A DNA stretch of 64,000 nucleotides from a virus (lineage: Duplodnaviria; Caudoviricetes), in the IMG/VR virus record IMGVR_UViG_3300031134_000004, positions 128,001 to 192,000 of that record. One strand, 5' to 3'. Of the stretch, positions 5,292 through 20,349 are shown one piece after another. Each line of letters begins with the position of its first letter. The first letter of the stretch is position 1. Made by a program: the position numbers and the translations under genes. The notes under the pieces were generated by a model. That model was not told the DNA's origin. It did not search any database and saw only the letters and a program-made list of their open reading frames with translations.

Positions 5292-5506
5292 TCAACGACG
5301 GCCGGCTAGTCTTGACTCCTGAGTGTTTTGGCGCTCAGGAGTTTTTACGAAGAGTCGGTTACCTTTGGTTTGGCAAATCCGGCCAGAGGTCGTTGGAAAA
5401 AACGGGGCGTTTCCCTACTCACTGGTGCAACGCCGGTGAGTAGGGTTTATGCCGTCTTTTTTACAGACAACACTTATAGTGTGTCTAACTAATAGGAGGA
5501 ACGATT

Positions 5507-5743
5507 ATGTTCATCTTTAAGCTCATTTATTTGTTCTCTGTCTTTATCTCTGGCTCTGTGGTACTTTTTCACTCAGGTGAATTTGTCCGGGCACTGTATA
5601 ACGACGACCGCAAACTCGGTAACGAAGACATCGCTGCATTCTTGTTCATCTGCTCGATCTTCATCTTCTTACCAATCATGAATACGTTCGTGGCAATGTG
5701 TGTGATTAAACACTATCTGGGTAAGAACAAACAACGGAGTTGA
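5507..5743 (+). CDS. Small AT-rich membrane protein
   Basis: RBS ataggagga; two hydrophobic segments. Confidence 0.6.
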   Translation: MFIFKLIYLFSVFISGSVVLFHSGEFVRALYNDDRKLGNEDIAAFLFICSIFIFLPIMNTFVAMCVIKHYLGKNKQRS

Positions 5744-5774
5744 TTACAATGGATTTCAGGCATATATTCCAATT

Positions 5775-6113
5775 GTGAGTAGCAAATACTATTCTTATTT
5801 GTCTGTAAGATCATCCGTAAGTCCACTTATAAAAAGGCACGCTATCGTGACGAACACTGTATTTGAAATCCTCTGGTATGCTTACCACATTAGTGTCTGG
5901 GGTGCGTTTGCATTCTTCTACATCCACTACGACATCATCAAGGTAAGAGCGTTCGCAATTGTTGCTGCGCGTATCAATCGCCATCTGCGTTGGGGCAAAC
6001 GCAATGAAGCAATGTACATGACGATGATGATGGTGTGCGTTCTTGCACCGATTGCCAATAGCTTCTTTGCTTACCTCACCTTGCGTTATTGGTGGCGTCG
6101 GCGTAAAGCGTAA
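5775..6113 (+). CDS. Hypothetical membrane protein (start uncertain)
   Basis: 112-aa ORF with hydrophobic stretches and a basic C-terminus; shares P..N.F.A with the preceding ORF. Confidence 0.5.
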   Translation: MSSKYYSYLSVRSSVSPLIKRHAIVTNTVFEILWYAYHISVWGAFAFFYIHYDIIKVRAFAIVAARINRHLRWGKRNEAMYMTMMMVCVLAPIANSFFAYLTLRYWWRRRKA

Positions 6114-6279
6114 GCGTCATAGACCGGAGGGAATTCCCTCCGGCCTTTATGCCCTCTTTATTTTTTTGTTTGAATTTAAAATGATTCAGTCATATATCAC
6201 CTAATTGACGTAGTATTCATATTGCGTGTTATGTGTTTAGGGAACGCTTAGGGATAAGTTGTTTTCAAGGAATAGAATC

Positions 6280-7413
6280 ATGATGGACATTAATCACGTA
6301 GCCCAAACCTTGTTCGGGAATGTCAACGTTTCACCGATCAAACCACAGGATCGACGGATAGGCCACAGTCCGATCGAGTTTCGAACAACCTACTACAATT
6401 ACTTACCAACCGCAGCAACTGTTGTGTGGCGCAGTGGACTTAAGTGTACCTTGGCACCAGAGCCGAGCTTTGAGACGAACCATTTGGTCATCAGAAATGA
6501 GATCACGATCCAGCACGCAGTAAAACTTGACATACAGCGTGTATTAAGTGCTGTAGCGGATGATGCCAGTCAAGAGATGCGAGCGCTAAGAGATGCGTTC
6601 AAAATCTCGATCCGGCACAACCACTTCAGTAGTGTTACTTTGATTTTAGACTACCATCTGTCGCTGGAACAGCTGAGAGATTATGGCGGGAGCGTGTACT
6701 ATCACGAACTCGACATCGTCGTATCACTGATGAGTTCAGACAAATCTCCCCCGCATCCGTATAGCGCTGCGGGTAGAGATTTATGCCTCGTAGAATCCGC
6801 TCCTAGCAAGATCGGGTTTAACTACGGTATTGAGATCATCGACAACGCAGGCAAGTATGGGGACCGTTACCTAAACATCGGTAACAAAGTCTATCGCGCA
6901 CCGGCCGAGAAAGATAGCACCAAACGTGACGGGGTGTATATCGTGGCGAATGAACCGGTCATCGGGGAAGTCGACATGAGCGAGCGCGAAGTGCAGTACT
7001 ACCCATTTGAAATGGCTGAAGAGCAAGTGGGTTTGTATCGCACACCAGAGGAAGCACTGAACTTAGGTGATTTGTCTCAAGCGAGAAAAGAAGAACTCGT
7101 TCAATTAGAGCATGAACTGCAAATTGGGAAAGCTGAACTTAACAAAGAACGGCAAGAACATGAAGCGGCAATGCTGGACAAACAACGGGCACTTCGAGAG
7201 GCTGAAGTAGAACGTGATCGCCAAGCGCGTGTGATTGAAGAAATGCGTGCTGATCACGAGCACAGACTCAAGCTTGAACGGGAACGTGTCAAGGATTACT
7301 ACGACGACAAATCTTACGAAAGGAAAGACAAAAGTGAAACACTAAAATTCATACCAGCCATTGTTGTCGGTATTGGTGGAGCGCTCATGGCAATTAAGAA
7401 GCTCTTCTTCTAG
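6280..7413 (+). CDS. Hypothetical protein with C-terminal coiled coil and membrane anchor
   Basis: RBS aagga; E/R/K-rich coiled coil followed by FIPAIVVGIGGALMAIKKLFF; directly upstream of the RNAP subunit gene. Confidence 0.7.
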   Translation: MMDINHVAQTLFGNVNVSPIKPQDRRIGHSPIEFRTTYYNYLPTAATVVWRSGLKCTLAPEPSFETNHLVIRNEITIQHAVKLDIQRVLSAVADDASQEMRALRDAFKISIRHNHFSSVTLILDYHLSLEQLRDYGGSVYYHELDIVVSLMSSDKSPPHPYSAAGRDLCLVESAPSKIGFNYGIEIIDNAGKYGDRYLNIGNKVYRAPAEKDSTKRDGVYIVANEPVIGEVDMSEREVQYYPFEMAEEQVGLYRTPEEALNLGDLSQARKEELVQLEHELQIGKAELNKERQEHEAAMLDKQRALREAEVERDRQARVIEEMRADHEHRLKLERERVKDYYDDKSYERKDKSETLKFIPAIVVGIGGALMAIKKLFF

Positions 7414-7457
7414 TATCACTAGCTGGAATTAACATCTCGAAACAAGGAAACAATAAC

Positions 7458-9065
7458 ATGATGGATGCCTTTATGGGCCCGTTGGTGGACGCCGACACAC
7501 CAGCGCTTAATCCCGACATCGCTAACGGCTTAGCCGTCAAGCACTTCAAGGATGTCGAGAAACATGTACATCTGGTTTTCCAATCGGCAGCGAAAGGCTT
7601 TCCCGAGGGTTTGAAGTACCTCGGGTGCCGTCGTTGTACACCGCCAGAAGAATTGGCCATCGTCACCAAGAAGAAGGGCAGTAAGCGCCTGTATGATGTT
7701 GCACGTTCGGACATCTACATGATGCAATACCTGTTCGAGTACAAGGGTGAGAAGCTCGACCCACGTTACATGTATTTGCCATTCGTTGGTGAAGCAGGTA
7801 GTTTGACGATGGGTGGTAGTCACTTTAACGTATCGCCGCTCTTGACGGACCGCGTGATCTCTGTGGGTGTCTCGAGCATCTTCATCCGGCTCTTGCGTGA
7901 CCGCTTGACGTTTGAGCGTATGAGCCAGCACTACATGATCGATGGTAAGCGTGAGACCGTGCAAGTTGCTTGGTCGCAAATTTACCATAAGAACGCGAAG
8001 ATGAAAAAGCTTCGTCCGACAGTGAAAGCCAATTGCACGCTGATGCACTATCTGCTTTGCAAGTTTGGTTTTGCTGAAACGTTCTTGAAGTTCGGCAATT
8101 GTAAGCCCGTTGTCGGTGGTGCAGAAATCAATAAGAACGTCTATCCAGAAGACGAGTGGGTCATTTGCAGTAGCACGCAAGTCAAACCCAAAGGTTGTGG
8201 TCGTGGCTTTTACGAGCCTACGCAAATTCGCGTTGCTGTGCGTAAGGAAGAACTGACCCCCATGGTGAAAAACATGCTGGGTGGTTTCTTCTACATTGCT
8301 GACCATTTCCCCACGCTGCTCCCGCCTGAGTGGGTGGAATCCAAACGCCAGTGGATGATCCTTTTGGGACACATCATCTTTTCTGGTTCGATCAACGCAG
8401 GTAAGCTGTACGACGACATTGCTGACCACATGACGTCGCTCGATGAGTATTTGGATAGCCTCATCATGGTCAAGCTGCAAGACATTGGCATTCATGTCGA
8501 TGACATCTACCAAGTGTTCGGTATCGTGATCGAGCGCTTTAACGATTGGTTGCTCTCGGCAACTGATAAGGTAGCGAGTATGTACGAGAAAGAACTGTCG
8601 ATCCTGCCGTTCTCCTTGTACGAAATCACGAGTGCAATCTTCAAGCTGTACTTCAAGCTTAAGGCGGCATCCAAGAAAGAACTGACGGCAAAAGAAATCG
8701 TTGCTACGATGAACTTGACGCTGCGTACCGGCTTGATTTTCTCCTTGACCAAAGGCCACGGGGAAGTCTCGACGATTAGCTGCCCAGGGGACAATAAGGC
8801 AACAAAGATCACCTCGCTTTTGGTGCCACAGTCGGCATCGAACCGTCAGAGTAGCCGGAAAGACCGGGCAGTATTGAATGACCCTTCCAAGCGCCTGCAT
8901 GTCTCGGTGGCTGAAGTCGGGGGCTATTCAAACTTGCCTAAGAGTGAACCTTCGGGCCGCTCACGGATTAACCCCCACGTTAAGGTTGATCCCAAAGGTG
9001 TGGTGTTGCGTAATCCTGCGCACATGGAGATGCTCGATAACGTGCAAGAACTTATCAGGCGTTGA
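7458..9065 (+). CDS. Non-virion RNA polymerase beta-like subunit, N-terminal part (phiKZ gp123-like)
   Basis: 535 aa with YLPF...GSLTMGGSHF.VSPLLTD and C-terminal LHVS.AE.G......K..P.GR.RINP motifs; located just downstream of the capsid gene as in phiKZ. Confidence 0.8.
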   Translation: MMDAFMGPLVDADTPALNPDIANGLAVKHFKDVEKHVHLVFQSAAKGFPEGLKYLGCRRCTPPEELAIVTKKKGSKRLYDVARSDIYMMQYLFEYKGEKLDPRYMYLPFVGEAGSLTMGGSHFNVSPLLTDRVISVGVSSIFIRLLRDRLTFERMSQHYMIDGKRETVQVAWSQIYHKNAKMKKLRPTVKANCTLMHYLLCKFGFAETFLKFGNCKPVVGGAEINKNVYPEDEWVICSSTQVKPKGCGRGFYEPTQIRVAVRKEELTPMVKNMLGGFFYIADHFPTLLPPEWVESKRQWMILLGHIIFSGSINAGKLYDDIADHMTSLDEYLDSLIMVKLQDIGIHVDDIYQVFGIVIERFNDWLLSATDKVASMYEKELSILPFSLYEITSAIFKLYFKLKAASKKELTAKEIVATMNLTLRTGLIFSLTKGHGEVSTISCPGDNKATKITSLLVPQSASNRQSSRKDRAVLNDPSKRLHVSVAEVGGYSNLPKSEPSGRSRINPHVKVDPKGVVLRNPAHMEMLDNVQELIRR

Positions 9066-9183
9066 CCTAGCGTAGATTCAATAACGCAACAACCACATAT
9101 TACAAAAGAGCAATGCATTACGTATTGTCACGCAACGACCCGCTAGGGACGCCTAGCGGGAACATAAACAAGGAAAAAATCTC

Positions 9184-11217
9184 ATGAGCTGGAACAACAA
9201 CAATCAACCGAACTTGCCGTACAATGCCACTGGTCCAGAGCGGCAACCGCTGAACCTGAGCCTGGGTAATCCGCCGTACGTGCCGGCAAGCTTCAATGGC
9301 CCACAACCGCTGCAACAGATCCTGCCCTTGATCTGCGCATCGGCTGCCATCGAAATCCAACAGCGTGCGCAGAACAATCCACTGCGTACGTTCATGTTCA
9401 ACCAGTATTCGCGCAACAACTTCAACAATGAGGATTTCGCAGCCCTCATCGAAGCGACGATCGAATACATCATCCTCGAGATGAACAACAATCGCTACAG
9501 TGACGTGGAACGCGCAGCGCAGAACTGCGTACCACAAATGTGCGAGATGCTGTGCGCAATCAATCTGCGGGTCTTCCCAGACCTGGAAGCGTACATCAAC
9601 CAGAACGTCGTCCAGACGCTGCGTAACACGATCAGCAACTTCGACAACATCGCGAACCGCATCAAGCAAGCGCGTTCGGGTAACAGCGGCTGGAACAACG
9701 GCAACAACAATAACAACAACCAAGGTAACAATGGTTGGAACGGTGGTAACAACAACAACGGCAATACCTGGAACAATGGTAATGGCGGTGGTGGTGGTAA
9801 CAACTGGAACAGCAACAGTGGTAACAACAACAGCGGTGGTAGCCAAAACCGCTGGAGCAATACCGGCAGCTGGAGTAGCGGTACAGCCAAGCCAAGCACT
9901 GGCAACACCGGCGCGCTGTTCAATAGCCAGAGCAGCAGCGGCAATGCAGAAGTCAGTGGTAACTTCCGCAGCAAGTACGACGACAAGCAACCACTCAAAC
10001 AACCCTATGAAGCCCGCAAGGAGAATCCCGTGAGCCAGCAACAACAGCAAGAAGAAATGCACGTCCTGGAAGCACCACTGAACTCGGGTGAAATCAAGTG
10101 GGTGCCAAGCAACCGCTACCCGTACGTACCTGCAATCGCCCCGACCGTCGGCGAAATCTGGCTGCGCAAGCATCCAGTTTCCCGCGATAACCCCAACGGC
10201 CTCATCGAGCCGTTCCTCAAAGAAAAGGACACCTCCGTGGACTACGACAAGCACGACACCGGCAGCATCTTCGGCCCACCACCGCGTACGCTCGACATGA
10301 GCAACGCTGCCAAGACCATGGCCAAGATCGAAGAAGGCGTGCGCAAGGTCAACAACACGGTGACGATGTCGGACGACGAAAAGAAAGCACCTGAAGTCAC
10401 GACGCTCGTGAACCAGAAGGTGATGATCGAAACGTCGCTCGAATCGGCCTGGGTTTCCGGTTCGCTCAATCGCCTGACGGCGCCGGCTGGTCAACTGCCT
10501 GACGTGTATCGCACCTACGCACGCATCGCGCTGCCACTGGTGACCCAGGAAGACCTGACCGATGTCATCACGAACTTCGGCCAGTCCAAGACCTACATCG
10601 AGCTGCGCGAAAAGCTGCAAGCGGCGATCGAAGAAAAGAAAGCACCACAACTGTGGGGTACGGTCAACACCCGCCTGACCGACATGATCAACCGCATCCT
10701 GTCGCAAAAGCTGGCACTGCCGGGCGAGAACGGTACGGCTGTGTCGATCGACTCGTTCCTGGGCGATATCGAAGATCTGATTTCGTTCCTGGGCAAGAGC
10801 TACGGTCAGAACGTGCAGCAAGCGTTCCTCAAGCATCAGAAGCAAGAAATCCAGAGCATGTTCATCACCCTGGACGAAAAGCTGACGAAAGACCTGTCGG
10901 ACGGTTACGTGGCGGACATGAAGTTCGACGACGCCAACAAGCCAACCTTCACGTTCCTGGCCAGCGACTATTCGCTCACGTTCCTGGACTGCCTGTCGTA
11001 CGAACTGGACGTGGACATGGTCAAAGGCATCGGCACCCTGATGACGGACGCCGGCACCCCGATCGTGCACAACATGCTCTCGGGTCTGTTTGCTGACATC
11101 GAAGAACGCGGCGGTTCGTTCGAGCGCCACCTGTTCATCACCAACGACGGCCGTACGCTCGAAGCGGTGCGCGGCTACCTGGGCGAGAAAGCCTACATGC
11201 TCACGCTCGTGAAGTAA
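9184..11217 (+). CDS. Large hypothetical protein with N/G-rich low-complexity region
   Basis: 677 aa, RBS aaggaaa, phage-typical codon bias; Asn/Gly/Trp tract at about aa 165-260. Confidence 0.8.
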   Translation: MSWNNNNQPNLPYNATGPERQPLNLSLGNPPYVPASFNGPQPLQQILPLICASAAIEIQQRAQNNPLRTFMFNQYSRNNFNNEDFAALIEATIEYIILEMNNNRYSDVERAAQNCVPQMCEMLCAINLRVFPDLEAYINQNVVQTLRNTISNFDNIANRIKQARSGNSGWNNGNNNNNNQGNNGWNGGNNNNGNTWNNGNGGGGGNNWNSNSGNNNSGGSQNRWSNTGSWSSGTAKPSTGNTGALFNSQSSSGNAEVSGNFRSKYDDKQPLKQPYEARKENPVSQQQQQEEMHVLEAPLNSGEIKWVPSNRYPYVPAIAPTVGEIWLRKHPVSRDNPNGLIEPFLKEKDTSVDYDKHDTGSIFGPPPRTLDMSNAAKTMAKIEEGVRKVNNTVTMSDDEKKAPEVTTLVNQKVMIETSLESAWVSGSLNRLTAPAGQLPDVYRTYARIALPLVTQEDLTDVITNFGQSKTYIELREKLQAAIEEKKAPQLWGTVNTRLTDMINRILSQKLALPGENGTAVSIDSFLGDIEDLISFLGKSYGQNVQQAFLKHQKQEIQSMFITLDEKLTKDLSDGYVADMKFDDANKPTFTFLASDYSLTFLDCLSYELDVDMVKGIGTLMTDAGTPIVHNMLSGLFADIEERGGSFERHLFITNDGRTLEAVRGYLGEKAYMLTLVK

Positions 11218-11277: not shown

Positions 11278-11793
11278 ATGGGTTTTCAGTTATCAATCGG
11301 TAATGCGCAGGCGGACTTTGACGATCCACGTAAGTATGTCAAGCAAGGCGAGGTTGCTGGTCAGTACGATATCTTCTTGTACGTACCAAACATCACGCAC
11401 TGGAATGCACCGTCGTTTCCTAACGCGGTTAGTTCGGCGCGCACGAACCAGATGTCGAGAAGTTATTCGTCGTTTGGTCAGTTCTGTGATATGACGGGAT
11501 TGGGTGAGGTGCTTGATAAACACGCTGGTGGCGAAATGGATCATCCTGACGCCATTGTCATTACGCCGATGCTCATTCAAGACGTGGCGGCAGTACGTTT
11601 TCGTTGGGAGCATTCTCGTCCTGCGAAAAAGCCTGCTGGTTATTGGAATGAAGTGTGGGAACCGAACACGCGTCAGTACATTGACCAAGATGGCGAAAAG
11701 TACGATTACACGTTGGCTGATCTTCTTTGGTTTGAAGGTTGGCTTAACTGGGCGTACCGTAACGTTCCTTACCCTTGCTTTAGGAATTCCTGA
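11278..11793 (+). CDS. Hypothetical protein
   Basis: RBS taggag, 171 aa. Confidence 0.7.
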   Translation: MGFQLSIGNAQADFDDPRKYVKQGEVAGQYDIFLYVPNITHWNAPSFPNAVSSARTNQMSRSYSSFGQFCDMTGLGEVLDKHAGGEMDHPDAIVITPMLIQDVAAVRFRWEHSRPAKKPAGYWNEVWEPNTRQYIDQDGEKYDYTLADLLWFEGWLNWAYRNVPYPCFRNS

Positions 11794-11794
11794 C

Positions 11795-12268
11795 ATGGAA
11801 AAAAATCCCTTTGAAGGCTTGCGCATTGCGGTGGCAGGCGAGAATTCGATGGCGCGCGAATACGCCACGAGTTTGATTGCCGACACGCTTTCGATGAATC
11901 ACTTCACGAACGTCAAGGTGCTCAATCCAGCAGCCATGGTGGTGCAGCACGGCACGACGCGTTCGTTGTATGATGTGGTCAAAGAACACGCTGCCCATAT
12001 CTTCAACGAGCCAGTGGAAATCCAAGGCAGCTTCGCATCGTTTGAGGACAAGAATATCGACGGTGCGTTCGGTCCTGAACCTGTGGGGCGTTTCCAATGG
12101 TCCAATGCTGACAAGCTCTGGGTCCAAACACCTGACGATGATCCGAAAGGTATCACGCTGTACGTGGCTGAAAAAGACGGCGAACGTGCACGCGAATTAT
12201 CAGGTCAGAAAGCGCTCGGTGTAATGACAGAATACCCGAACACCGGCAAGCGCACCATCGAAGCTTAA
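11795..12268 (+). CDS. Hypothetical, degenerate P-loop-like paralogue family member 1
   Basis: True start probably MEKNPF (ATG 11795, RBS agga); LRIAVAGENSMAREYATSLIADTL...FTNVKV. Confidence 0.65.
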   Translation: MEKNPFEGLRIAVAGENSMAREYATSLIADTLSMNHFTNVKVLNPAAMVVQHGTTRSLYDVVKEHAAHIFNEPVEIQGSFASFEDKNIDGAFGPEPVGRFQWSNADKLWVQTPDDDPKGITLYVAEKDGERARELSGQKALGVMTEYPNTGKRTIEA

Positions 12269-12320
12269 ACCTTCATGCCTGCTGGGAAACCGGCAGGCTA
12301 TATGCCATTAAGGAGAAGTT

Positions 12321-12767
12321 ATGGCACGCACTGCCAATGTGAGTGTTCAGTACACAGAGTCCCATCCAATTGGTTCGGGGATCTATACGTTGCTGACGGA
12401 AATGCTCAAGTCGTACAAACCGATGGAAAAGCACAGCATCGTGAGTGTGGAAGTTGTCGAGACGTATATCGAGAACGACGACACGGAAAGTCCTCGGATC
12501 AATGCAACACAAATTACGTGGGATGATTCGCAAGGATCGCCTTATAGCAAAGTTGCGGTGTTGGTCTTTGAAGCAGACCGCACTGCCCAGTATCGTGAAC
12601 CGAAGTTTGTGGTGCGTTACGCTGACTCAGTGTTTTCGCACGATGAACCTCGTACGAGCGACATTCATTACTACGTCAAAAGCATGGGTAATGCGTTGGT
12701 GGAGATTTGCAATGTCTTCCTCAACACTCACCCCATGATTCCCCGTTCCCGCAAGTTCCCCCAATAA
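12321..12767 (+). CDS. Hypothetical protein
   Basis: RBS aaggag, 148 aa. Confidence 0.7.
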   Translation: MARTANVSVQYTESHPIGSGIYTLLTEMLKSYKPMEKHSIVSVEVVETYIENDDTESPRINATQITWDDSQGSPYSKVAVLVFEADRTAQYREPKFVVRYADSVFSHDEPRTSDIHYYVKSMGNALVEICNVFLNTHPMIPRSRKFPQ

Positions 12768-12779
12768 GGAGTAACAAAC

Positions 12780-13226
12780 ATGAGTACCAAAGACAAAAAA
12801 CTGAGCGTTACCATTAACCTGGCCGGCACGAGCAATACGGGCAAGACCCTGCTCGCTGCAAAACTGAGCGCCTTCTTCAAGAGCCTCGGTATCATCGAGA
12901 CCAAGGTGCATGACGAAGAAATCCATCCGGAAGACTTCGGCGAACTGTGCATCCAAGCACCGACGACGTCGTTCGATTACGCAGCGCAAGACACCAGCGT
13001 TGACATCAGCGTCTCGCCGATCTACCACCCAATCGACACCAGCGACGAGCCAGCTGCGCAGCGTCACATGCTCGAAGCGAACCTGTCGGCCGAACAGCTC
13101 GAAGCGCGTTTCAGCAAGTCGTACCAGCACCCGCAACATCCACGCACTGCCTGGTTGGCTGAAATCCACGAACGTCGCATCACTGACGGCTACTGGGTGT
13201 GGCTCAAGCGTCAACTGGCAAAGTAA
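12780..13226 (+). CDS. P-loop-containing small protein (family member 2)
   Basis: INLAGTSNTGKTLLAAKL is an intact Walker A; C-terminal HP..AW..EI......GYW.WL module. Confidence 0.75.
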   Translation: MSTKDKKLSVTINLAGTSNTGKTLLAAKLSAFFKSLGIIETKVHDEEIHPEDFGELCIQAPTTSFDYAAQDTSVDISVSPIYHPIDTSDEPAAQRHMLEANLSAEQLEARFSKSYQHPQHPRTAWLAEIHERRITDGYWVWLKRQLAK

Positions 13227-13324
13227 TTTCTTGTCAGAAAGAAAACATCTTTTTACTGGCCTAGCTAGTTCTATGTAGCACATTTTCAACGTAGTCCACT
13301 ACACTTAAACAAGGAAAAAGTATC

Positions 13325-13642
13325 ATGGCACAAGGCACTTTGCACATCGAAATCACCGGCGACCAAGACTCGGGCAAGACCCTCATCGGGAACATCATCC
13401 ACGATGCGCTGGAAAAGAACGGCTTTAAGAACGTGACCCAAATCGCCGACACGGGCGAACCGGTTGCTCGCATCGACAATACCCCATCGGTTCTGGACCT
13501 GGTGCGCGAATCGCGCCCTGACATGTTCGACACGCCCGTGACCATCTCCGAGACGACCTGGAGCGGCGACGACGACATCAACGTTGTTACCGACACCGGT
13601 CTGGAAGACCTCGAGACCGAAGCGAACGCAGCGCTGGGCTAA
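13325..13642 (+). CDS. P-loop-containing small protein (family member 3)
   Basis: IEITGDQDSGKTLIGNII is an intact Walker A; SVLDLVRESRPDMF. Confidence 0.75.
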   Translation: MAQGTLHIEITGDQDSGKTLIGNIIHDALEKNGFKNVTQIADTGEPVARIDNTPSVLDLVRESRPDMFDTPVTISETTWSGDDDINVVTDTGLEDLETEANAALG

Positions 13643-13711
13643 TATAGCAGCGGCATAAACGACAGGAAGGCTTTGCGCTTTCCTGTCTTTCTTTTTTTCT
13701 TGGAGATTACC

Positions 13712-13891
13712 ATGCCACTTGCTCGTGTGCAGCGAATTGAACTTGAGTTCGCCGAATCAGAGAAGTGTCCACCCTTACCTGCTAAACCATCGAAGCATCA
13801 ACCCAAAGCCATAGCGCAGTTGGGTGAAAGTGCGCAGCGTAAGAAACAAATGGCGTGGCGCTTCTTAATGGCTCAAAGGGGGATACGGTGA
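13712..13891 (+). CDS. Small basic hypothetical protein (MPLARVQ...)
   Basis: RBS ggag before ATG 13712; its stop overlaps the next GTG. Confidence 0.55.
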   Translation: MPLARVQRIELEFAESEKCPPLPAKPSKHQPKAIAQLGESAQRKKQMAWRFLMAQRGIR

Positions 13892-14313
13892 GTATGAAGC
13901 ATGGCATACCGCATTTCGATCATTCAAAGGACATCGCAATGAGTCTGAAAAATGTCTGTGTTGCATTGTCGGCCTTTGCACAGCCAACCAATAGCGACAA
14001 TCCGATTCCTCTTAACAGAACCGCGCCTGAACCGGAGAGTCGTAACTTGTTGGGTCCGCTCTTTTGGAACGTGGTATTGCAACGCAATATCTCGGATGAG
14101 CAACTCAAGAAGATGCTGCGCAACTACGAGCAAGTGCTGCGCAATCGGGGTGTGGGAACACGCCACCGTAATCTGGATGGGGATATTTACAATCAATTAA
14201 AACGCGGCGATATGACGTGGAAGATCTTTTGCATGGGGCTTGAAGCCATTGGTGCAGAACTCATCGATGTGCAGCTTGGCGTTAGTTTTAAGGAGGCAGT
14301 TAATGTCGGATAA
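13888..14313 (+). CDS. Hypothetical protein, paralogous to the C-terminus of 29474-30016
   Basis: GTGA overlap start; LGPLFWNVVLQRNIS...QLKRGDMTWKIFCMGLEAIG. Confidence 0.65.
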   Translation: MSMKHGIPHFDHSKDIAMSLKNVCVALSAFAQPTNSDNPIPLNRTAPEPESRNLLGPLFWNVVLQRNISDEQLKKMLRNYEQVLRNRGVGTRHRNLDGDIYNQLKRGDMTWKIFCMGLEAIGAELIDVQLGVSFKEAVNVG

Positions 14314-14923
14314 GAAAATCGCGGTGACGGTCTCAGGCGGTGACCTTGTCGAAAATGAATTGGTGGCGATTTCAATTCACCACCACCTAACGCACGGTGG
14401 CTGGGGTAACGTGACGGTGGAAGACCCAGCTGGTCAACCTACCAAAGAAGCCTTGGAAGGCATTACGCTGTACGACATGGTGGATCGTCTGCGGCCTGAA
14501 CTCTTTGACACGAGTATCGTCGTTAAAGGGTCGTTGCCACAAAGCTTCCCAGACCAACCGATTGTGACCGATTCCCACGGCACCGAGCGGTATAAGACGA
14601 ACGAAGTGGTTCGTTACCTGCTCGATGAAGGTCCGTTTGACATGAACCATCTGGCACGTATTCCTTTCCCACTGGAAGACCGTCAGCAGTTCGCGCAAAT
14701 GATCGGTTACAGTACCGGCGGTTACGATACGCTGAGTTACTCGCCAGCCTCGCTCGCTGCAGAAGCGAGTGAACGGGCGCGCGATGAAGTCGAGCGTGTC
14801 AAGAACCATGGCGCGGCGTCCATGTCGCACACGGAAGTCGAAGCGCGCGACTACGACCCGGTTGACAACAAAACCTTCGCTGTGGAAGTTGAACAGCCCA
14901 GCACGGACAATACGTCCAATTAA
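14303..14923 (+). CDS. Degenerate P-loop-like paralogue family member 4
   Basis: RBS aaggagg, ATG 14303; IAVTVSGGDLVENELV...LYDMVDRLRPELFD. Confidence 0.7.
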   Translation: MSDKKIAVTVSGGDLVENELVAISIHHHLTHGGWGNVTVEDPAGQPTKEALEGITLYDMVDRLRPELFDTSIVVKGSLPQSFPDQPIVTDSHGTERYKTNEVVRYLLDEGPFDMNHLARIPFPLEDRQQFAQMIGYSTGGYDTLSYSPASLAAEASERARDEVERVKNHGAASMSHTEVEARDYDPVDNKTFAVEVEQPSTDNTSN

Positions 14924-14932
14924 GGAGAAACG

Positions 14933-16075
14933 ATGAACAATGGAACAGATATCCGCGTTCAAGTCACGGGTGGCGATTCTTGGAAAGAACGCGAACTCGT
15001 GGCAGACACGATCGCTGTTGCAATGCAGGATCGCGGTTTCAATCAAGTCACTGCGCTCAATAGCATGGGCGGTGAGAGTGAGTTGTATGGTGTTAAACCA
15101 CGCACGGTGTGGGAAGCGGTCAATGTCGTAGCATCCAGTTTGGTCAATCGCACTATCACGGTCGATCCTGGTCTTGACAGTAAGCATCCTGGGTTGGCAA
15201 AAGACTTCGGCTTTGGTGGTCACTGGCAGCATCTGGCTAACACTGGTATGTCGGTGTACAATCCGGACGAGCAAGGTCATCCTGAATCGGAGCCAGCCCA
15301 GTTCGATAACACCACGGTGATGGTTCGTTCGGGTGAACACTCGGCCATCATGGACCTGCGAAACCGCAACAGTCCAGAAGGCACAATCAACGGCTGCCGG
15401 GAAATGGGTATTGAAGCTACGCATGTCGGCATTCGTGCAAGCGACATGGATAACGCGGTCGCGGCTGTTGCGCAAGCACTGCGCGCAGCGCCGGGTGCTT
15501 ACGTGACGGTATCGGTGCGTGAACCGAATAGTAATCGTGGCGGCGAACCACCGGAGCAGTTGTACTTTAACGATCCGGCACCAAAAACGATCCATCCATT
15601 CCAAGTGCAAGAGTTGCCTGGTCGTGGCTTCCGTCCCTTTACCGAAACGTTCGACCGCTCGATGGTGTTGCAAGACAATCCGGGTTCGTTCTTGCTCGAC
15701 GATGTCGTTGAGACCGATCCGAACCACAGTAAGATCGTGGAGATGGTCAAGCAGCGGATCGAGAACACCTTGCAAGACTCGGAAAAGTCGCTTGCAAATG
15801 CACGCGAACACCTCGCTGCAGCACAGCACTCAATCGACCAAGTCGAGAAACTCGAAGCACCTGGTCTTAAAGACCAAGTCACGCAAATGGTGAAAACCAA
15901 TCTGCAGGCTTCGGGCGGCTACGACAACCTGTCCGATAAAGCGGTCGAAGAACTGGCTGCTGTCGCCGTCGGCAAAGGTTTCCAGAACGCAAAGAGCAAG
16001 CTGGCTGTGCAAAATGGCGGCTACACACCACCCACCGAGGACGAACCGAAGACCGGTCGTCGTAACAAGAAGTAA
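14933..16075 (+). CDS. Degenerate P-loop-like paralogue family member 5
   Basis: RBS aaggag; IRVQVTGGDSWKERELVADTI...RGFNQVT; C-terminal coiled coil. Confidence 0.75.
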   Translation: MNNGTDIRVQVTGGDSWKERELVADTIAVAMQDRGFNQVTALNSMGGESELYGVKPRTVWEAVNVVASSLVNRTITVDPGLDSKHPGLAKDFGFGGHWQHLANTGMSVYNPDEQGHPESEPAQFDNTTVMVRSGEHSAIMDLRNRNSPEGTINGCREMGIEATHVGIRASDMDNAVAAVAQALRAAPGAYVTVSVREPNSNRGGEPPEQLYFNDPAPKTIHPFQVQELPGRGFRPFTETFDRSMVLQDNPGSFLLDDVVETDPNHSKIVEMVKQRIENTLQDSEKSLANAREHLAAAQHSIDQVEKLEAPGLKDQVTQMVKTNLQASGGYDNLSDKAVEELAAVAVGKGFQNAKSKLAVQNGGYTPPTEDEPKTGRRNKK

Positions 16076-16104
16076 TAACCATCCACAACTAGAAAGGAAA
16101 CACC

Positions 16105-16755
16105 ATGTTTAACCAAAACGCCACTTACAACCCAAGCCCGAACCACAACCACACCGAGTTCAACAGCGACCTGAACATCCACGTTACCGGCGGCGACCGT
16201 GTCGAACGTGAACTGCTGGTCGATGCTGTCTCGAGCGCCCTGAAGAAACGCGGCCTGGAAGGCGTCAAAGCCATCGGTCCACACGGCTGGGCTACCGGGC
16301 ACGAAAACGTGCAGCCGAAAACCATCCTGGATCACGTCGAAAAGCTCCGTCCTGACCTGATGAACAAGAACATCGCTGTGACCTCGCAGCAAGACAAGTT
16401 CGCAATGCACGCCGGCTTGTCGCCAATGCCAGTCAAGTTCAGCGCAAGTAATGCTGACGGCAAGAGCATCAGCAGCTCGAGCGGCACCGCCAAACAGTTC
16501 CTGGCTGAAGCAAGTGAAATGGGCGTGTCGGAAAAGATCACCGTCTCGGGCACCTACCAAGACTCGCTGATTCGTGCAGCCCAAGAAATCCTGCACGCAC
16601 AACCGGCCACGGAAGTCACACTCAAGATGGAACTGCAACCGTGGCAAGTTCGTCAAAACAACGACGCCTACTACGCACCGCCGTTCGAACCAGGCAAGGT
16701 CGTCAGCACGCTCGATCCAGCCGGCATCCCACTGCCAGCTTCGCAACCGTTCTAA
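16105..16755 (+). CDS. Degenerate P-loop-like paralogue family member 6
   Basis: RBS aaagga; LNIHVTGGDRVERELLVDAV...TILDHVEKLRPDLM. Confidence 0.75.
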   Translation: MFNQNATYNPSPNHNHTEFNSDLNIHVTGGDRVERELLVDAVSSALKKRGLEGVKAIGPHGWATGHENVQPKTILDHVEKLRPDLMNKNIAVTSQQDKFAMHAGLSPMPVKFSASNADGKSISSSSGTAKQFLAEASEMGVSEKITVSGTYQDSLIRAAQEILHAQPATEVTLKMELQPWQVRQNNDAYYAPPFEPGKVVSTLDPAGIPLPASQPF

Positions 16756-16817
16756 GTCGCAGCTGGTAAGTTCTAACGCGGCATAAGGGCCAGAGGGGAG
16801 TTACCCCCTCTGGCTCT

Positions 16818-17441
16818 ATGACACAAATTATGAAAACGAAAAACACAACGTGCACCTATCGCATAACTCATCATAAGTCTGGTAAGTTCTACATTGGCAG
16901 TACTGGTAATTTCCAACAAAGAAAATTAGAGCACGAAAGCGCACTTCGTAGGAATTGCCATACGAATTCAGAACTTCAACAAGCCTATAATGACGATCCC
17001 AATATCGCGATTGAAATTGAAACTATTGCAAAGGATAGGGAAGAAGCTTATAACCTTGAACAAAAACATTTAGACGAGCACATTCGATCAGGCACGCTCT
17101 TCAATAAAGATACTGAGGCAAAAGGTTGGTTGCAAGGACAGCCTTGTTCTGATGAGAGAAAAGCAGCTATCTCCTACGCTAACTCAGGACGAACACATAG
17201 TCCTGAAACTAAGAAACAAATCGGAGACACTCAGCGGGGCCGAAAGCGAGCTGAGGAAGCAGTTGAAAAGATGAAAGAAACTCTTCGTAAGAAGTCTAAA
17301 GCAGTTTCTATTAAAGGTGTAATTTATCCAAGCATCGGAGTAGCGATCGAAGCATTAGGTGTAGATTACAATACCATCAGTAATCGTGTCAGAAGTCAAA
17401 CTGACGCGTTTAGTGATTGGTTCTTTGTCGAGCAGGCATAA
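16818..17441 (+). mobile_element. Free-standing GIY-YIG homing endonuclease (Seg-like) with NUMOD3-like segment
   Basis: TYRITHHKSGKFYIGST...R...H; GRTHSPETKKQIG (NUMOD3-like); more AT-rich than neighbours; flanked by hairpins on both sides. Confidence 0.88.
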
Positions 17442-17505: not shown

Positions 17506-20349
17506 TTACGTTTGGTCAGTTCCGTCTGGTTGGGTGTCGTCGTCGGTTTTGGGCTCTTGCTCTCCTTCACCCTTGCCTTCTTCATTTTCACCACCTTCCG
17601 GGGTTTCACCATTTGCTGCATCATCGTTGCCTCCCGCATTGTCATCAGTTGGAGTATCGACACTAAACGGATCACCACCACCGGCATCGAGACTGAAATC
17701 GTCTCCCGTATTGCTGCCGCTGTCATCTGTCGTGTTGTCCGAATTACTGCTGGTCGATTCTGCATCCACACCGCCATGCGCTGTCATGACCGTGTTACTA
17801 GCGTCGCGTACTTGCTCGACCTTGATCATGAAGTCAGTGAACGTCTTGGTCAAGTTACCCAAGTGCGTCGTTTGCATATCCCACACGTCAACCATTGGTT
17901 TGCCGTCAGCATCAACAGCAGTCAGCTTGGCCAGTTCAGGCAGCACACCGTTTTCATTCATCCACTGACGAATGTAGTACGCTTTGACCACTTCACGCAT
18001 GGTATTCACTTGGTTAGCAATGTCGCCACCTGTGTCAGTCGTGAAGAACTTGTCGCTGATGATCGCTTCGAGGAACGCGTCGAGTGCTTTGGTGTACGTC
18101 TCGAGCGCAGTCAGTTGGTTCTCCAGCGTGACCGAATTAGGACGTGGCAATTCCACCGTGAAGTTCATGATGAATTCGCTCAAGAGCTGGTCGACCGCGT
18201 AACGCTTTGCAGCGTCCAGTTGGTGCTGAGCATCTTTGTCCGCTTTACCAGCACGCACCGCTTCGATGATGTTTTTGCCTTCCTCAGTCTCTTCCATCTT
18301 AAGACGGTCGAAGTTGTTAATGAGGATGTCACGCAGATCATTGATGAGGTGTTCGGAATTCATCATGCACTTACGCATGTGATCCGACAAGAGTGGACAG
18401 AACTGCTCCTGGATCGTCATGACGCGTTTGGACAGAAGGATGTTGTTCGTCACAACCGAAGTAGCAAATTCGGCCTGGAACGTTGCATCGACCGTCTCTG
18501 GCGACAGACCTGTGGACATGATGGCTCGCTTACGCAAGTTCTCTTCCAAGTCAGTATCTGGCTTGGTGTAGTTATCGTTCTTTTGCTCGAACGACACAGC
18601 AACGTCCGGCAGACCAGGGTGGCCTTCGTAGACGAACTCGAAACCAGCACGCTGCAAGAAGTCCGTAATGTCCGTTGGGCTATTAACACCCAGTGGGAAA
18701 TACTGCTGACGGGCACGGATGATTTCGTGCTGCATGATTTCAAGCGTCTTTTGTGGGTTCGGGTCCGACTCATCGAGTTTCAAACGCACATTGGTACGAC
18801 CAACCGAATTCTTCACCGAAGCCATGACGTTTGCGAACATCAGCATGGTGCGCAGACTGTTCAGAATCTTCATGTCTTCCATGAGCGACTTACCGATACC
18901 GTCTTCCGTATAACGGAAAGCGAAGTACGTCATGAGTTCAGCTGGGATGAACAGCATTTGGGTATGTTGCTTAGCGAGCGAACGGGCCAGCATGATGCGG
19001 TAGACTTCATCACGCTTTGCCAGTGCTACGCCATTACCATACACGCCGTTACGCAGACGGGCCAAGAGTTCTTGCTCGACCATGTCGCCGTAGATGCGGG
19101 CAGTGTAATCGAGGTGCTCACGGTTGTTCGTATCAAAGCCATTCATCATGCCTTTAACGCGACCCAGCATCGCTGATGGGAAGCTGCCGTTGGTGTTCAG
19201 ACGCTGCGCCATCTCTTGATAGTAGTCAGCGTTTTCCGACATCGACACAGGGTGACCGTCAGCATCGATCAACAGGTAAGCGCCCACTTGCTGCTCAGGA
19301 CAACCCGGCACGTACGCAGGAATCACCGCTTCCGGTGGAACGTGCATGATGAGTGGGTTACCCACAGTGCGGCGGTTAAGCTGCTCTTGCGTTTTGAGCG
19401 TATTGATCGGCTTGTAGTTATAGTTGCGCTCTTTATAGAGTAGACCAGCCATTTGGCGATCATTCATTGGCTGCATCGTTTTCTTTTGCTGCAACGGCGA
19501 GAACGATTCCAAAGCGCGCGTACCGACAACTTCCATGATGCGTTGCTCACGGATCTTTTGGTTCACTTGTGGGAACTTGAGCAAGTCGAAGTTATCGGTC
19601 ACGGTAATGAACGTTTCGACCTTCTTCTTAAATTCCCCTTCCAGTGCCATTGCGCCATCGACCGATTGTGGAACCGCGTAGTCAGCAAACGACTCCATGG
19701 CAAAGCCCGGTGCATTGCGGTGCTTGGTTGGTACTGGTTTCACAGCTGGACCCAACAGACCCAAAGACCGAACCGAGCCGTCTTCGTGAATCGAATCTTG
19801 CATCGACTCGAACGAGACGCGCTTTTGACCGTTGATGACTTCGTCGATGGACGACTCTGGAATGACAAGCACAGGGTAGCTGCCGTCTTCAAACAGAATC
19901 GAGCGCAGCATTTTCGAGAGCAGCGGCTTTATTTTATAGTCCTGCTCGAAATACGCCTTCGCCCGGTTAATCAGTGCGCCACTGACATCGGGTGCCATTA
20001 AGCCTTCTGTGACCGAATATGTCAGTTCGGTTTCCATCATGTCTTTTGGCGAAAGAATCGAGCTTACCAAAATCTGCGCCGACAGTTCCATGTCAGGCAA
20101 GAGCTGCATGACCGTCTTAGCATCCATCGAGCTTTGCGCGGTACGCTGGGAGATTTGCTTGAACGCTTGCGTGTTCGGTGGTGTCGTTTCGCGATTACCA
20201 TTGTTATCGTAACGCTGCACTTCCCGATCGGGAACGAGCTTACTGATTGCTGCGAGCAGTTCGGGGTTCTCACGAACAAGCGGCATCACGGGGAAACTCT
20301 TGCCGGTGCCTGCTTGACTTACTGCGCGCTTAAATTCTTTCGATGCCAT
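17506..20349 (-). CDS. Probable portal protein (phiKZ gp129-like)
   Basis: 947 aa with AMES/ALES processing-type sites and a long acidic tail; head-to-head with a large structural gene, as in phiKZ-like phages. Confidence 0.7.
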   Translation of the reverse strand: MASKEFKRAVSQAGTGKSFPVMPLVRENPELLAAISKLVPDREVQRYDNNGNRETTPPNTQAFKQISQRTAQSSMDAKTVMQLLPDMELSAQILVSSILSPKDMMETELTYSVTEGLMAPDVSGALINRAKAYFEQDYKIKPLLSKMLRSILFEDGSYPVLVIPESSIDEVINGQKRVSFESMQDSIHEDGSVRSLGLLGPAVKPVPTKHRNAPGFAMESFADYAVPQSVDGAMALEGEFKKKVETFITVTDNFDLLKFPQVNQKIREQRIMEVVGTRALESFSPLQQKKTMQPMNDRQMAGLLYKERNYNYKPINTLKTQEQLNRRTVGNPLIMHVPPEAVIPAYVPGCPEQQVGAYLLIDADGHPVSMSENADYYQEMAQRLNTNGSFPSAMLGRVKGMMNGFDTNNREHLDYTARIYGDMVEQELLARLRNGVYGNGVALAKRDEVYRIMLARSLAKQHTQMLFIPAELMTYFAFRYTEDGIGKSLMEDMKILNSLRTMLMFANVMASVKNSVGRTNVRLKLDESDPNPQKTLEIMQHEIIRARQQYFPLGVNSPTDITDFLQRAGFEFVYEGHPGLPDVAVSFEQKNDNYTKPDTDLEENLRKRAIMSTGLSPETVDATFQAEFATSVVTNNILLSKRVMTIQEQFCPLLSDHMRKCMMNSEHLINDLRDILINNFDRLKMEETEEGKNIIEAVRAGKADKDAQHQLDAAKRYAVDQLLSEFIMNFTVELPRPNSVTLENQLTALETYTKALDAFLEAIISDKFFTTDTGGDIANQVNTMREVVKAYYIRQWMNENGVLPELAKLTAVDADGKPMVDVWDMQTTHLGNLTKTFTDFMIKVEQVRDASNTVMTAHGGVDAESTSSNSDNTTDDSGSNTGDDFSLDAGGGDPFSVDTPTDDNAGGNDDAANGETPEGGENEEGKGEGEQEPKTDDDTQPDGTDQT

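Follow-up and report, generated by a model that had tools for sequence, protein, structure and literature searches.

Among described phages, the closest counterpart of the locus analysed here is found in the Burkholderia phage FLC9 (LC667451), in which gp81 to gp85 and gp88 bear one common N-terminal module and lie between gp89, the gp124-like gene, and the portal gene gp80. All six are annotated as hypothetical, and a single one, gp81, has a Walker A motif (GHGNMGKT). Within one clade of phiKZ-like jumbo phages, the gp124-like gene is followed by 1 to 6 members of this family (6 in FLC9 and 1 each in two Paraburkholderia-associated jumbo-phage contigs), and phiKZ itself has no family member. 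A public phage resource already contains a cluster for part of the family, since phrog_38013 (PHROGs v4) matches 6 of the 109 members scanned (best E 3e-31); this cluster is unannotated, covers only a small branch of the family and matched none of the copies described below. The early-promoter core of phiKZ is TATATTAC (PMC7058600, Table 2).

Here, a locus of the same kind is described from a jumbo phage, in a 64,000-nucleotide stretch of a Caudoviricetes record (IMGVR_UViG_3300031134_000004, positions 128,001 to 192,000), referred to as the window throughout. Its features are, in window coordinates:

9094..9103, + strand: early-promoter-like motif CACATATTAC, resembling the phiKZ core; putative promoter
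9184..11217, + strand: gp124-like gene, Asn/Gly-rich product of 677 aa, assigned by matches to phrog_36323 and phrog_15010 and by synteny
11278..11793, + strand: interspersed ORF, 171 aa, module absent
11795..12268, + strand: paralogue A, 157 aa, module at residues 7-79 with loop GENSMARE, then an A-type C-terminal part
12321..12767, + strand: interspersed ORF, 148 aa, module absent in Pfam, PHROG and module-profile searches
12780..13226, + strand: ORF B, 148 aa, Walker A GTSNTGKT, first half of the module only
13325..13642, + strand: paralogue C, 105 aa, module at residues 4-77 with Walker A GDQDSGKT
13661..13697, + strand: intrinsic-terminator-like hairpin (11-bp stem and T run), splitting the array into two units
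13855..14313, + strand: interspersed ORF, 152 aa as listed, start uncertain, module absent; matches phrog_4910
14303..14923, + strand: paralogue D, 206 aa, module at residues 4-77 with loop GGDLVENE
14933..16075, + strand: paralogue E, 380 aa, module at residues 5-80 with loop GGDSWKERE
16105..16755, + strand: paralogue F, 216 aa, module at residues 20-95 with loop GGDRVERE

The product of 9184..11217 is the counterpart of phiKZ gp124 and FLC9 gp89 and serves as a conserved anchor upstream of the family locus, with synteny to FLC9 gp89 and to the Paraburkholderia-associated phage contigs. The promoter-like motif lies 81 nt 5' of this gene, which heads a co-oriented block, and the window contains 5 instances of the pattern CAYATATYMC, where 0.49 would be expected. 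The family array is co-oriented with an RNA-polymerase-subunit gene. All six ORFs A to F start with ATG at the coordinates listed and carry a Shine-Dalgarno-like AGGA or GGAG 6-9 nt upstream. The ORF at 11278..11793 gave no match to the module profile, Pfam or PHROG. The preliminary description spoke of six tandem paralogues; the ORFs are indeed neighbours, but the array is loose, being interrupted by unrelated ORFs at 11278, 12321 and 13855 and by a strong terminator.

The claim that all six share one module was confirmed for A, C, D, E and F over ~75 residues, and had to be reduced for B to the first ~45 residues, without full membership. Leave-one-out profiles, from which the tested copy was excluded, were run against 1,997 six-frame ORFs of the phage genome and recovered each of the five (E 3.4e-9 for A, 1.9e-13 for C, 4.1e-12 for D, 1.4e-14 for E and 2.6e-17 for F), and the best unrelated ORF of the genome reached an E of at least 0.046. 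A profile built from external relatives only found the same five with E from 1e-14 to 7e-28. By profile comparison, A, C, D, E and F are homologous through the N-terminal module, far above chance. The six loop motifs quoted earlier are all as stated. Walker A, GxxxxGK[ST], is present in B and C in the loop between strand 1 and helix 1; A, D, E and F have x-[R/N]-E where GK[ST] is expected and do not qualify as Walker A, and the loop of E has a one-residue insertion.

ORF B was not recovered by full-module profiles (E 1.5-240), but a match to the Walker-A subgroup was obtained over residues 2-47 alone (hmmsearch E 0.019; hhalign P 4.3e-5), better than the other Walker-A ORFs of the genome that served as the hhalign control (P at least 8.6e-4). 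The recognisable part consists of strand 1, the loop, helix 1 and strand 2; the second half of the module is missing. Its identity to the N-terminus of FLC9 gp81 is 42% over 38 aa. No relative of B was found among 5.8 billion proteins, so B is an orphan, and it may be a further decayed offshoot of the Walker-A subgroup.

Beyond the window, the family comprises 184 cluster representatives at E ≤ 1e-3, in which the module nearly always starts within residues 1-10. The profile search and copy count over related phages that had been proposed earlier thus gave 184 representatives and 1 to 6 copies at the locus, and the idea of an expanded family whose domain is too short for a whole kinase is supported. 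No Pfam or NCBIfam model covers these proteins. They constitute a real, old, unnamed phage family of acidic proteins, with a median pI of 4.4. From its N-terminus, the module runs through a hydrophobic strand, a loop rich in Gly and a first helix to GFxNV (strand 2), and on through a GEP loop and a second helix (S/T-h-L-D..R-P-x-L-F) to strand 3 (P-I-x-I); the three strands are read from this sequence pattern, and the models display only the two helices. The downstream motif S/T-h-L-D...R-P-x-L-F, noticed earlier in three of the copies, proved real and family-wide: of 157 rows, 152 have P64 and 120 have D57. G10 is retained in 144 of 157 alignment rows, and K or R occupies the Walker-Lys position in 108 of 147.

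It was also claimed that most copies lack GK[ST], and this is borne out: Walker A is canonical in 17 of 147 external representatives (~12% of members), and 88% are without it. In the 18 Walker-A members, which share ~35% identity, G12, G17 and K18 are invariant and E76 is nearly so. A Glu two residues past strand 3 occurs in 17 of 19 sequences with Walker A versus 16 of 138 otherwise; paralogue C has Glu76 at this place, followed by an acidic tail (pI 4.05).

A stepwise loss of the P-loop, as first proposed, is not supported by these data, as only two motif states exist and the four degenerate copies of the window all carry x-[R/N]-E. When the Walker-A rows were constrained to one clade, the tree was not rejected (p-AU 0.72), and therefore one transition suffices for the two states. 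The Walker-A members may form one clade, and for the same reason the association of Walker A with the Glu may be a single event. The module tree was built without an outgroup, and the direction of change (loss or gain) is one that we infer. Nor is a decay series of recent tandem duplicates supported, as orthologues specific to each paralogue occur in other phages. Sequence comparison indicates that the paralogues are old and that each has its own conserved C-terminal part. The A-type tail is also present in 6 other external cluster representatives. The D tail, a C-terminal domain at residues ~83-160, is common to 5 external representatives and is also found as a stand-alone phage protein at 9 IMG/VR loci without the module. 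Orthologues of E are P0008 and P0023, and those of F are P0002 (56% identity) and P0003 (50%). On the module tree, E lies next to F. After the module, F has a small alpha/beta domain (residues ~110-175; AlphaFold2 pLDDT 80-87 over residues 110-180), and E has a middle domain that shows weak relatedness to its counterpart in F, and then a long helical C-terminal part. The second domain said to be common to E and F is thus weakly supported (hhalign P 1.8e-4, probability 48%).

The Walker-A copies weakly resemble P-loop kinases at the profile level. Against the PDB, the Walker-A profile matched cytidylate kinase 1q3t (E 0.002), AK6-like 1y63 (E 0.004), thymidylate kinase 4tmk (E 0.027) and the APS kinases 2yvu/5cb6 (E 0.015-0.08, positions 3-37 only); almost all its matches are P-loop NTPases, kinases ranking first, and the alignments run through helix 1 to strand 2. 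For the whole-family profile, an AK6-like kinase was the second match (E 0.058), behind a repeat-inflated BurrH match. Protein-atlas neighbours are P-loop kinase fragments, and structural neighbours over residues 2-51 are CbiA/ParA, AAA_26 and SRP54. The non-Walker profile alone gave no significant match to a P-loop protein, with kinases at E 0.48, and hence the P-loop link rests largely on the motif-bearing subgroup. In Pfam, the six window proteins had no match at E ≤ 0.1 and the 109 members only sub-threshold scatter (AAA, AAA_18, nSTAND3, AAA_16; E 8e-4 to 5e-2); NCBIfam matches were weak only (RadB, MinD, MobB, shikimate kinase). APS kinase itself was also sought in the six-frame phage genome with PF01583, which found none at E ≤ 10 and detected the enzyme in 14 of 14 control genomes.

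The fold comparison with APS and thymidylate kinases that had been suggested did not succeed: structure prediction yielded no confident fold, and searches with the predicted ones returned nothing usable. For C, the AlphaFold2 model (109-row alignment, pLDDT 78) contains helices and no paired strands, Foldseek with the predicted folds found nothing, and VIA-align peaked at Z 2.7 for 1rz3 (uridine kinase-like), followed by Z 2.4 for 2yvu (APS kinase). The length of the module allows three strands only, versus at least five in the parallel core sheet of P-loop NTPases. The Glu two residues past P-I-x-I is, as read from the sequence, a candidate for the acidic residue of Walker B.

The explanation that we tentatively prefer, at somewhat less than an even chance, is that the locus is a local expansion of an old family built on a truncated P-loop-derived module that acts mostly as a nucleotide-independent adaptor. 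The module would most likely be the first three-fifths of a P-loop NTPase domain of the kinase type, the last two strands of which were lost. The Walker-A subgroup, represented by C in the window, keeps the invariant Gly and Lys and the Glu and has probably retained the binding of phosphate or nucleotide. In A, D, E, F and the other degenerate members, Arg and acidic residues in the loop would preclude classical nucleotide binding, and the module may be a structural unit for docking or self-association, to which either an acidic tail or a conserved C-terminal domain, of which there are several, is joined. The proteins are probably made early or mid-infection and are probably accessory proteins that bind host or phage partners rather than enzymes. 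Besides the profile, motif, age, locus and pI results given above, this explanation is supported by the early-promoter-like motif at 9094 and by the co-orientation with the RNA-polymerase-subunit gene. Against it count the failure to obtain a confident fold, the Pfam P-loop models that all stayed below their cut-offs, the empty APS-kinase search, the non-Walker profile that barely detects kinases, and the possible single origin of the association between Walker A and the Glu.

An alternative that we regard as unlikely holds that three-strand modules pair to complete the sheet of a heteromeric switch, the Walker-A copy (C, or gp81 in FLC9) giving nucleotide dependence and the degenerate copies bringing different C-terminal effector domains into one complex. 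The AlphaFold2 monomer strands are unpaired despite good local confidence, two divergent phages each have one Walker-A copy and four or five degenerate copies at the same locus, and C-, E- and F-type genes occur together on a related 69-kb contig. However, RP12 and two Paraburkholderia-associated phages hold a single degenerate copy and no Walker-A copy, which means that the degenerate form must work alone.

A common N-terminal part with variable C-terminal parts is an established pattern of capsid-targeted proteins, such as the T4 internal proteins and the head paralogues of phiKZ and 201phi2-1. By analogy with phiKZ-like inner-body and head paralogues, the family could be packaged in the head or ejected, with the module as a capsid-targeting or assembly domain, and the position of the locus between the major-capsid region and the portal gene fits this proposal. 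We consider it improbable: the genes follow, in the same orientation, an early-like promoter motif and the gene of a non-virion RNA-polymerase subunit, the module does not end in a conserved S/A/G-x-E protease site, phiKZ lacks a member and gp124 and gp125 are absent from the text of its virion atlas, and the RP12 copy, which has no virion-protein annotation, adjoins dihydrofolate reductase, far from head genes.

The preliminary description raised the possibility of sponges, decoys or adaptors for host defence factors; sponges or decoys would sequester nucleotides or cyclic-oligonucleotide immune signals or mimic a host NTPase against defence. This reading seems decidedly doubtful, since the acidic loop residues of most members should repel phosphates, no defence-related context was seen, and Pfam and the curated families gave zero matches (known sponge families being outside the direct comparison); small size, acidity and variable copy number, the phosphate-binding residues kept in the Walker-A subgroup, and a fast-turning-over accessory locus adjoining a homing endonuclease, as often for counter-defence genes, speak for it. 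Least probable of all is convergence, in which an unrelated small alpha/beta domain acquired GxxxxGK[ST] by chance in one clade: the non-Walker profile, the empty fold searches and a possible single Walker-A clade would suit it, but the motif occupies, as in kinases, precisely the loop that joins strand 1 to helix 1 at the very N-terminus, the family as a whole retains the first Gly and has a basic residue at the Lys position, an acidic residue stands past strand 3 where Walker B would be, and the PDB matches run through helix 1 to strand 2.

If the preferred explanation is true, a nucleus-forming-type jumbo-phage clade carries ~75-residue remnants of the most common nucleotide-binding fold, of which one branch keeps catalytic-site residues under strong constraint and the remaining members have been redeployed to carry acidic tails and several uncharacterised domains. 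This would provide a natural test case for the smallest working P-loop unit and for the recruitment of pseudo-NTPase domains. The locus itself, variable (1 to 6 copies) and accessory at a fixed genome place, is a sensible site at which to seek host-takeover or counter-defence functions. A bolder proposal, for which we see a slim chance, is that C and its orthologues (~100 aa) are natural minimal P-loop proteins and the degenerate paralogues their pseudo-enzyme partners in a nucleotide-gated adaptor system; the three-strand half-domain, with its invariant Walker A Lys and Walker-B-like Glu, might bind and perhaps hydrolyse nucleotide only after self-association, and would be a living counterpart of the laboratory 'P-loop prototype' proteins.

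Compared with kinase-type P-loop NTPases, the module, where Walker A is kept, has the N-terminal strand, GxxxxGK[ST], the helix and the second strand in the same order at the extreme N-terminus, and an acidic residue past the predicted third strand. It differs in its length of ~75 residues with three predicted strands, in the lack of strands 4-5 and in having neither a lid nor a substrate-binding part. In size it is similar to the designed 'phosphate-loop' prototypes 6c2u/6c2v, which are likewise short beta-(P-loop)-alpha units far below a natural NTPase and which the Walker-A profile matches at E 0.013 over positions 10-45; the prototypes are laboratory constructs from consensus P-loop sequences, whereas the phage family is natural and its loop is mostly decayed. 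The array of FLC9 differs from that of the window in its C-terminal parts and interspersed genes and in the 622 aa of its Walker-A copy, gp81. FLC9 is a cultured phage with the host Burkholderia glumae, and these questions can therefore be addressed at the bench.

PHROG matches of the proteins encoded by the 224.6-kb virus record, of which the window spans bases 128,001-192,000 and for which a completeness of 84% was estimated, show by sequence similarity that the virus is a phiKZ-like jumbo phage. Its closest cultured phage is Burkholderia phage FLC9 (55% portal identity). The array of six open reading frames, here designated A to F, lies on the + strand and is bordered by a 677-aa gp124-like gene and a portal gene on the - strand.

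Features of the virus record and of the array
722-aa protein: major head protein (PHROG match)
535-aa protein: RNA-polymerase subunit (PHROG match, phrog_2943)
764-aa protein: gp128-like protein (PHROG match)
9184-11217, + strand: 677-aa Asn/Gly-rich protein, counterpart of phiKZ gp124, upstream border of the array
Starts at 11795, 12780, 13325, 14303, 14933 and 16105, + strand: A, B, C, D, E and F
17506-20349, - strand: 947-aa portal-type virion protein (PHROG match)

A homing endonuclease gene of the GIY-YIG type, whose DNA-binding parts are of the NUMOD and I-TevI types (16818-17441, + strand), separates the array from the portal gene and points to local plasticity of the genome.

The motifs that the preliminary description had ascribed to the six reading frames are all present in the sequence, and each frame is preceded by a Shine-Dalgarno-like sequence. 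Pairwise BLAST joined A, C, D, E and F over their first ~80 residues, which hold a module of ~75 residues (strand 1, a Gly-rich loop, helix 1, strand 2, helix 2 and strand 3, the strands being read from the sequence pattern). In leave-one-out searches, each copy was sought among the genome's complete set of 1,997 stop-to-stop ORFs with a profile built without it (for F, its two external orthologues were also omitted); the E-values were 2.6e-17 for F, 1.4e-14 for E, 1.9e-13 for C, 4.1e-12 for D and 3.4e-9 for A, compared with 0.046 or worse for the best unrelated ORF. Profile searches revealed no further module copies in this genome. B was not recovered with full-module profiles (E 1.5-240), and only its residues 2-47 resemble the subgroup that retains Walker A (hmmsearch E 0.019, hhalign P 4.3e-5), a match about twenty-fold better than that of the genome's next-best Walker-A ORF. 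B lacks the stretch corresponding to helix 2 of the other copies, and a search of 5.8 billion proteins found no relatives of it. On these grounds, the array consists of five sure members and one probable remnant; the earlier claim of six paralogues is supported for A, C, D, E and F and not for B as a full member.

The family is real, old and unnamed. When 1.84 billion representatives were searched with a profile, 184 proteins scored at E <= 1e-3, of which 40 reached E <= 1e-10; nearly all come from Logan metagenome assemblies, and the clusters of the family are listed as viral in the protein atlas. These proteins are mostly 90-200 aa long, begin the module inside their first ten residues and are acidic (median pI 4.4; pI < 5 in 81% of members). 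About 60% consist of the module and a short acidic tail, and the remainder carry longer C-terminal parts; a search for such longer, fused versions returned only E. The best-kept positions are G10, L27, G31-F32, V35, S/T54, D57, P64, L66-F67 and P70. The module has no counterpart family in Pfam or NCBIfam, the six proteins and their long relatives could be placed in no family of Pfam, PHROGs or NCBIfam, and phrog_38013, whose function is not annotated, takes in a small branch. Among 50,697 phage records, the array DNA, E and the external family protein P0013 had no match, C matched FLC9 only, and the external protein P0020 matched RP12/RP31 only. Searches of viral and metagenome contigs with family alignments recovered no related loci.

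In FLC9, six module genes (gp81-85 and gp88) occupy the same site between gp89, which is gp124-like, and the portal gene gp80; one of them, gp81, carries Walker A. Two jumbo-phage contigs in Paraburkholderia assemblies encode, in this order, the major capsid protein, a 384-aa protein, an RNA-polymerase subunit and a gp124-like protein, followed by one degenerate module gene. Based on this conserved site, the family occupies a constant place in one clade, in 1 to 6 copies. In RP12 and RP31, a single degenerate copy lies at a different site, adjoining dihydrofolate reductase, and no copy was found in phiKZ, LucasX, SURPRISE13 or RSL2. A 69-kb Logan contig, to which the external proteins P0002, P0007 and P0008 belong, carries C-, E- and F-type genes. 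The two Paraburkholderia contigs, from Paraburkholderia sp. GAS448 and P. adhaesiva ZD32-2 (284 kb), are both phiKZ-like and have the gene order of 3123-11217 in the window; they give a lead on the host of the clade, and may reflect a carrier state or the co-sequencing of a phage. Walker-A-type, module-like N-termini of about 40-70 aa were also observed in large proteins of two other jumbo phages, Xanthomonas phage Xoo-sp14 gene 92 (713 aa; 6590-8728 of locus L011) and FLC9 gp81 (622 aa; 14951-16816 of locus L003), which are unrelated outside the N-terminus and contain no Pfam domain.

A, D, E and F each fall in a separate group with its own tail kept in other contigs (3 to 7 representatives per group, the copy of the window included), and in the module tree the row nearest to C, E and F is in each case an external orthologue, not a copy from the window. 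These two observations indicate that the duplications predate the split from related phages. The tails of E and F are weakly related (hhalign P 1.8e-4). An AlphaFold2 model of F from a shallow alignment showed a poorly formed module and a C-terminal domain of generic alpha/beta fold, the best structural match being to a designed protein (Z 5.9). Residues ~83-160 of D (14549-14782, + strand) form a C-terminal domain that stands alone in proteins of ~100-190 aa from nine unrelated IMG/VR contigs, one of them 467 kb long, with the pattern QP..D..G..RY..N.IVRYL.D.G..D.N.L...D..QF.Q.IGYS; it has no Pfam family and only weak phrog_5848 and phrog_28084 matches, and a protein-atlas search with it gave nothing informative.

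Upstream of the gp124-like gene, a motif at 9094 resembles the phiKZ early-promoter core (PMC7058600), and the window is enriched for related sites. A loose search within the array found no further cores above chance, and no second promoter was recognised. A strong terminator past C (13661-13697) divides the array in two. Expression early or in mid-infection is probable for the degenerate copies. The leader of the gp124-like gene, between the motif and the start codon at 9184, contains a perfect 9-bp hairpin (9139-9162, + strand; CCCGCTAGG GACG CCTAGCGGG) without a T run after it. Directly after the terminator lies a small ORF (13712-13891, + strand; 59 aa from ATG, GGAG 8 nt upstream), and the start of the next ORF, at 13855, is uncertain.

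Of the 147 external representatives, 17 carry the canonical GxxxxGK[ST], and 108 have K or R at the position of the Walker lysine. The commonest degenerate loop forms are ERE and ARE, the states also seen in A, E and F. In 18 Walker-A members of ~35% identity, G12, G17 and K18 do not vary and E76 hardly does, which points to selection on a putative phosphate-binding site in this subgroup. A Glu two residues past strand 3 is present in 17 of 19 Walker-A members versus 16 of 138 others, an association for which too few branches are supported to allow phylogenetic correction. With the motif columns removed, an AU test did not reject a tree with the Walker-A rows as one clade, which scored higher than the unconstrained tree (p-AU 0.72); one transition between motif states would therefore suffice, and the association may go back to a single event. 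Because a single Walker-A clade is acceptable and only two discrete motif states are seen, the stepwise loss of the P-loop proposed earlier is not accepted.

The functions that we favour are adaptor or binding roles independent of nucleotides for the degenerate copies, and some remaining binding of phosphate or nucleotide for C-type copies. The rival readings of these roles are a heteromeric switch, a sponge or decoy, and packaged proteins.

An AlphaFold2 model of C from a 109-row alignment had good local confidence, no sheet and no paired strands, and fold searches, by Foldseek against PDB and BFVD and by a wide VIA-align search, gave no usable match. The Pfam APS_kinase model had no match in the genome, and the profile of members without Walker A did not by itself reach P-loop kinases (E 0.48). 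The likeness of this non-Walker profile to BurrH (E 1e-8) was dropped, as it adds up from about 20 weak repeat matches that are individually not significant. Each 33-residue repeat of this TALE-like DNA-binding protein (4cj9) is weakly matched by module positions ~27-59 (for example, 13400-13500 in the window), the common pattern being L..xGF[ST]..[DN][IV]......G......[ST].LD.

The most economical reading, though not proven, is that the module descends from kinase-type P-loop domains. It looks like the truncated front part of such a domain, with the site apparently preserved in one branch and decayed in the rest, which carry varied C-terminal parts. The protein atlas agrees with the P-loop resemblance at the level of a lead. 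Against PDB, the matches of the Walker-A profile were almost exclusively P-loop NTPases, and likeness was detected to cytidylate kinase (E 0.002), to an AK6-like kinase (E 0.004, positions 2-47), to a designed phosphate-loop protein (E 0.013), and to APS kinases and thymidylate kinase, with which the alignment extends up to position 58.
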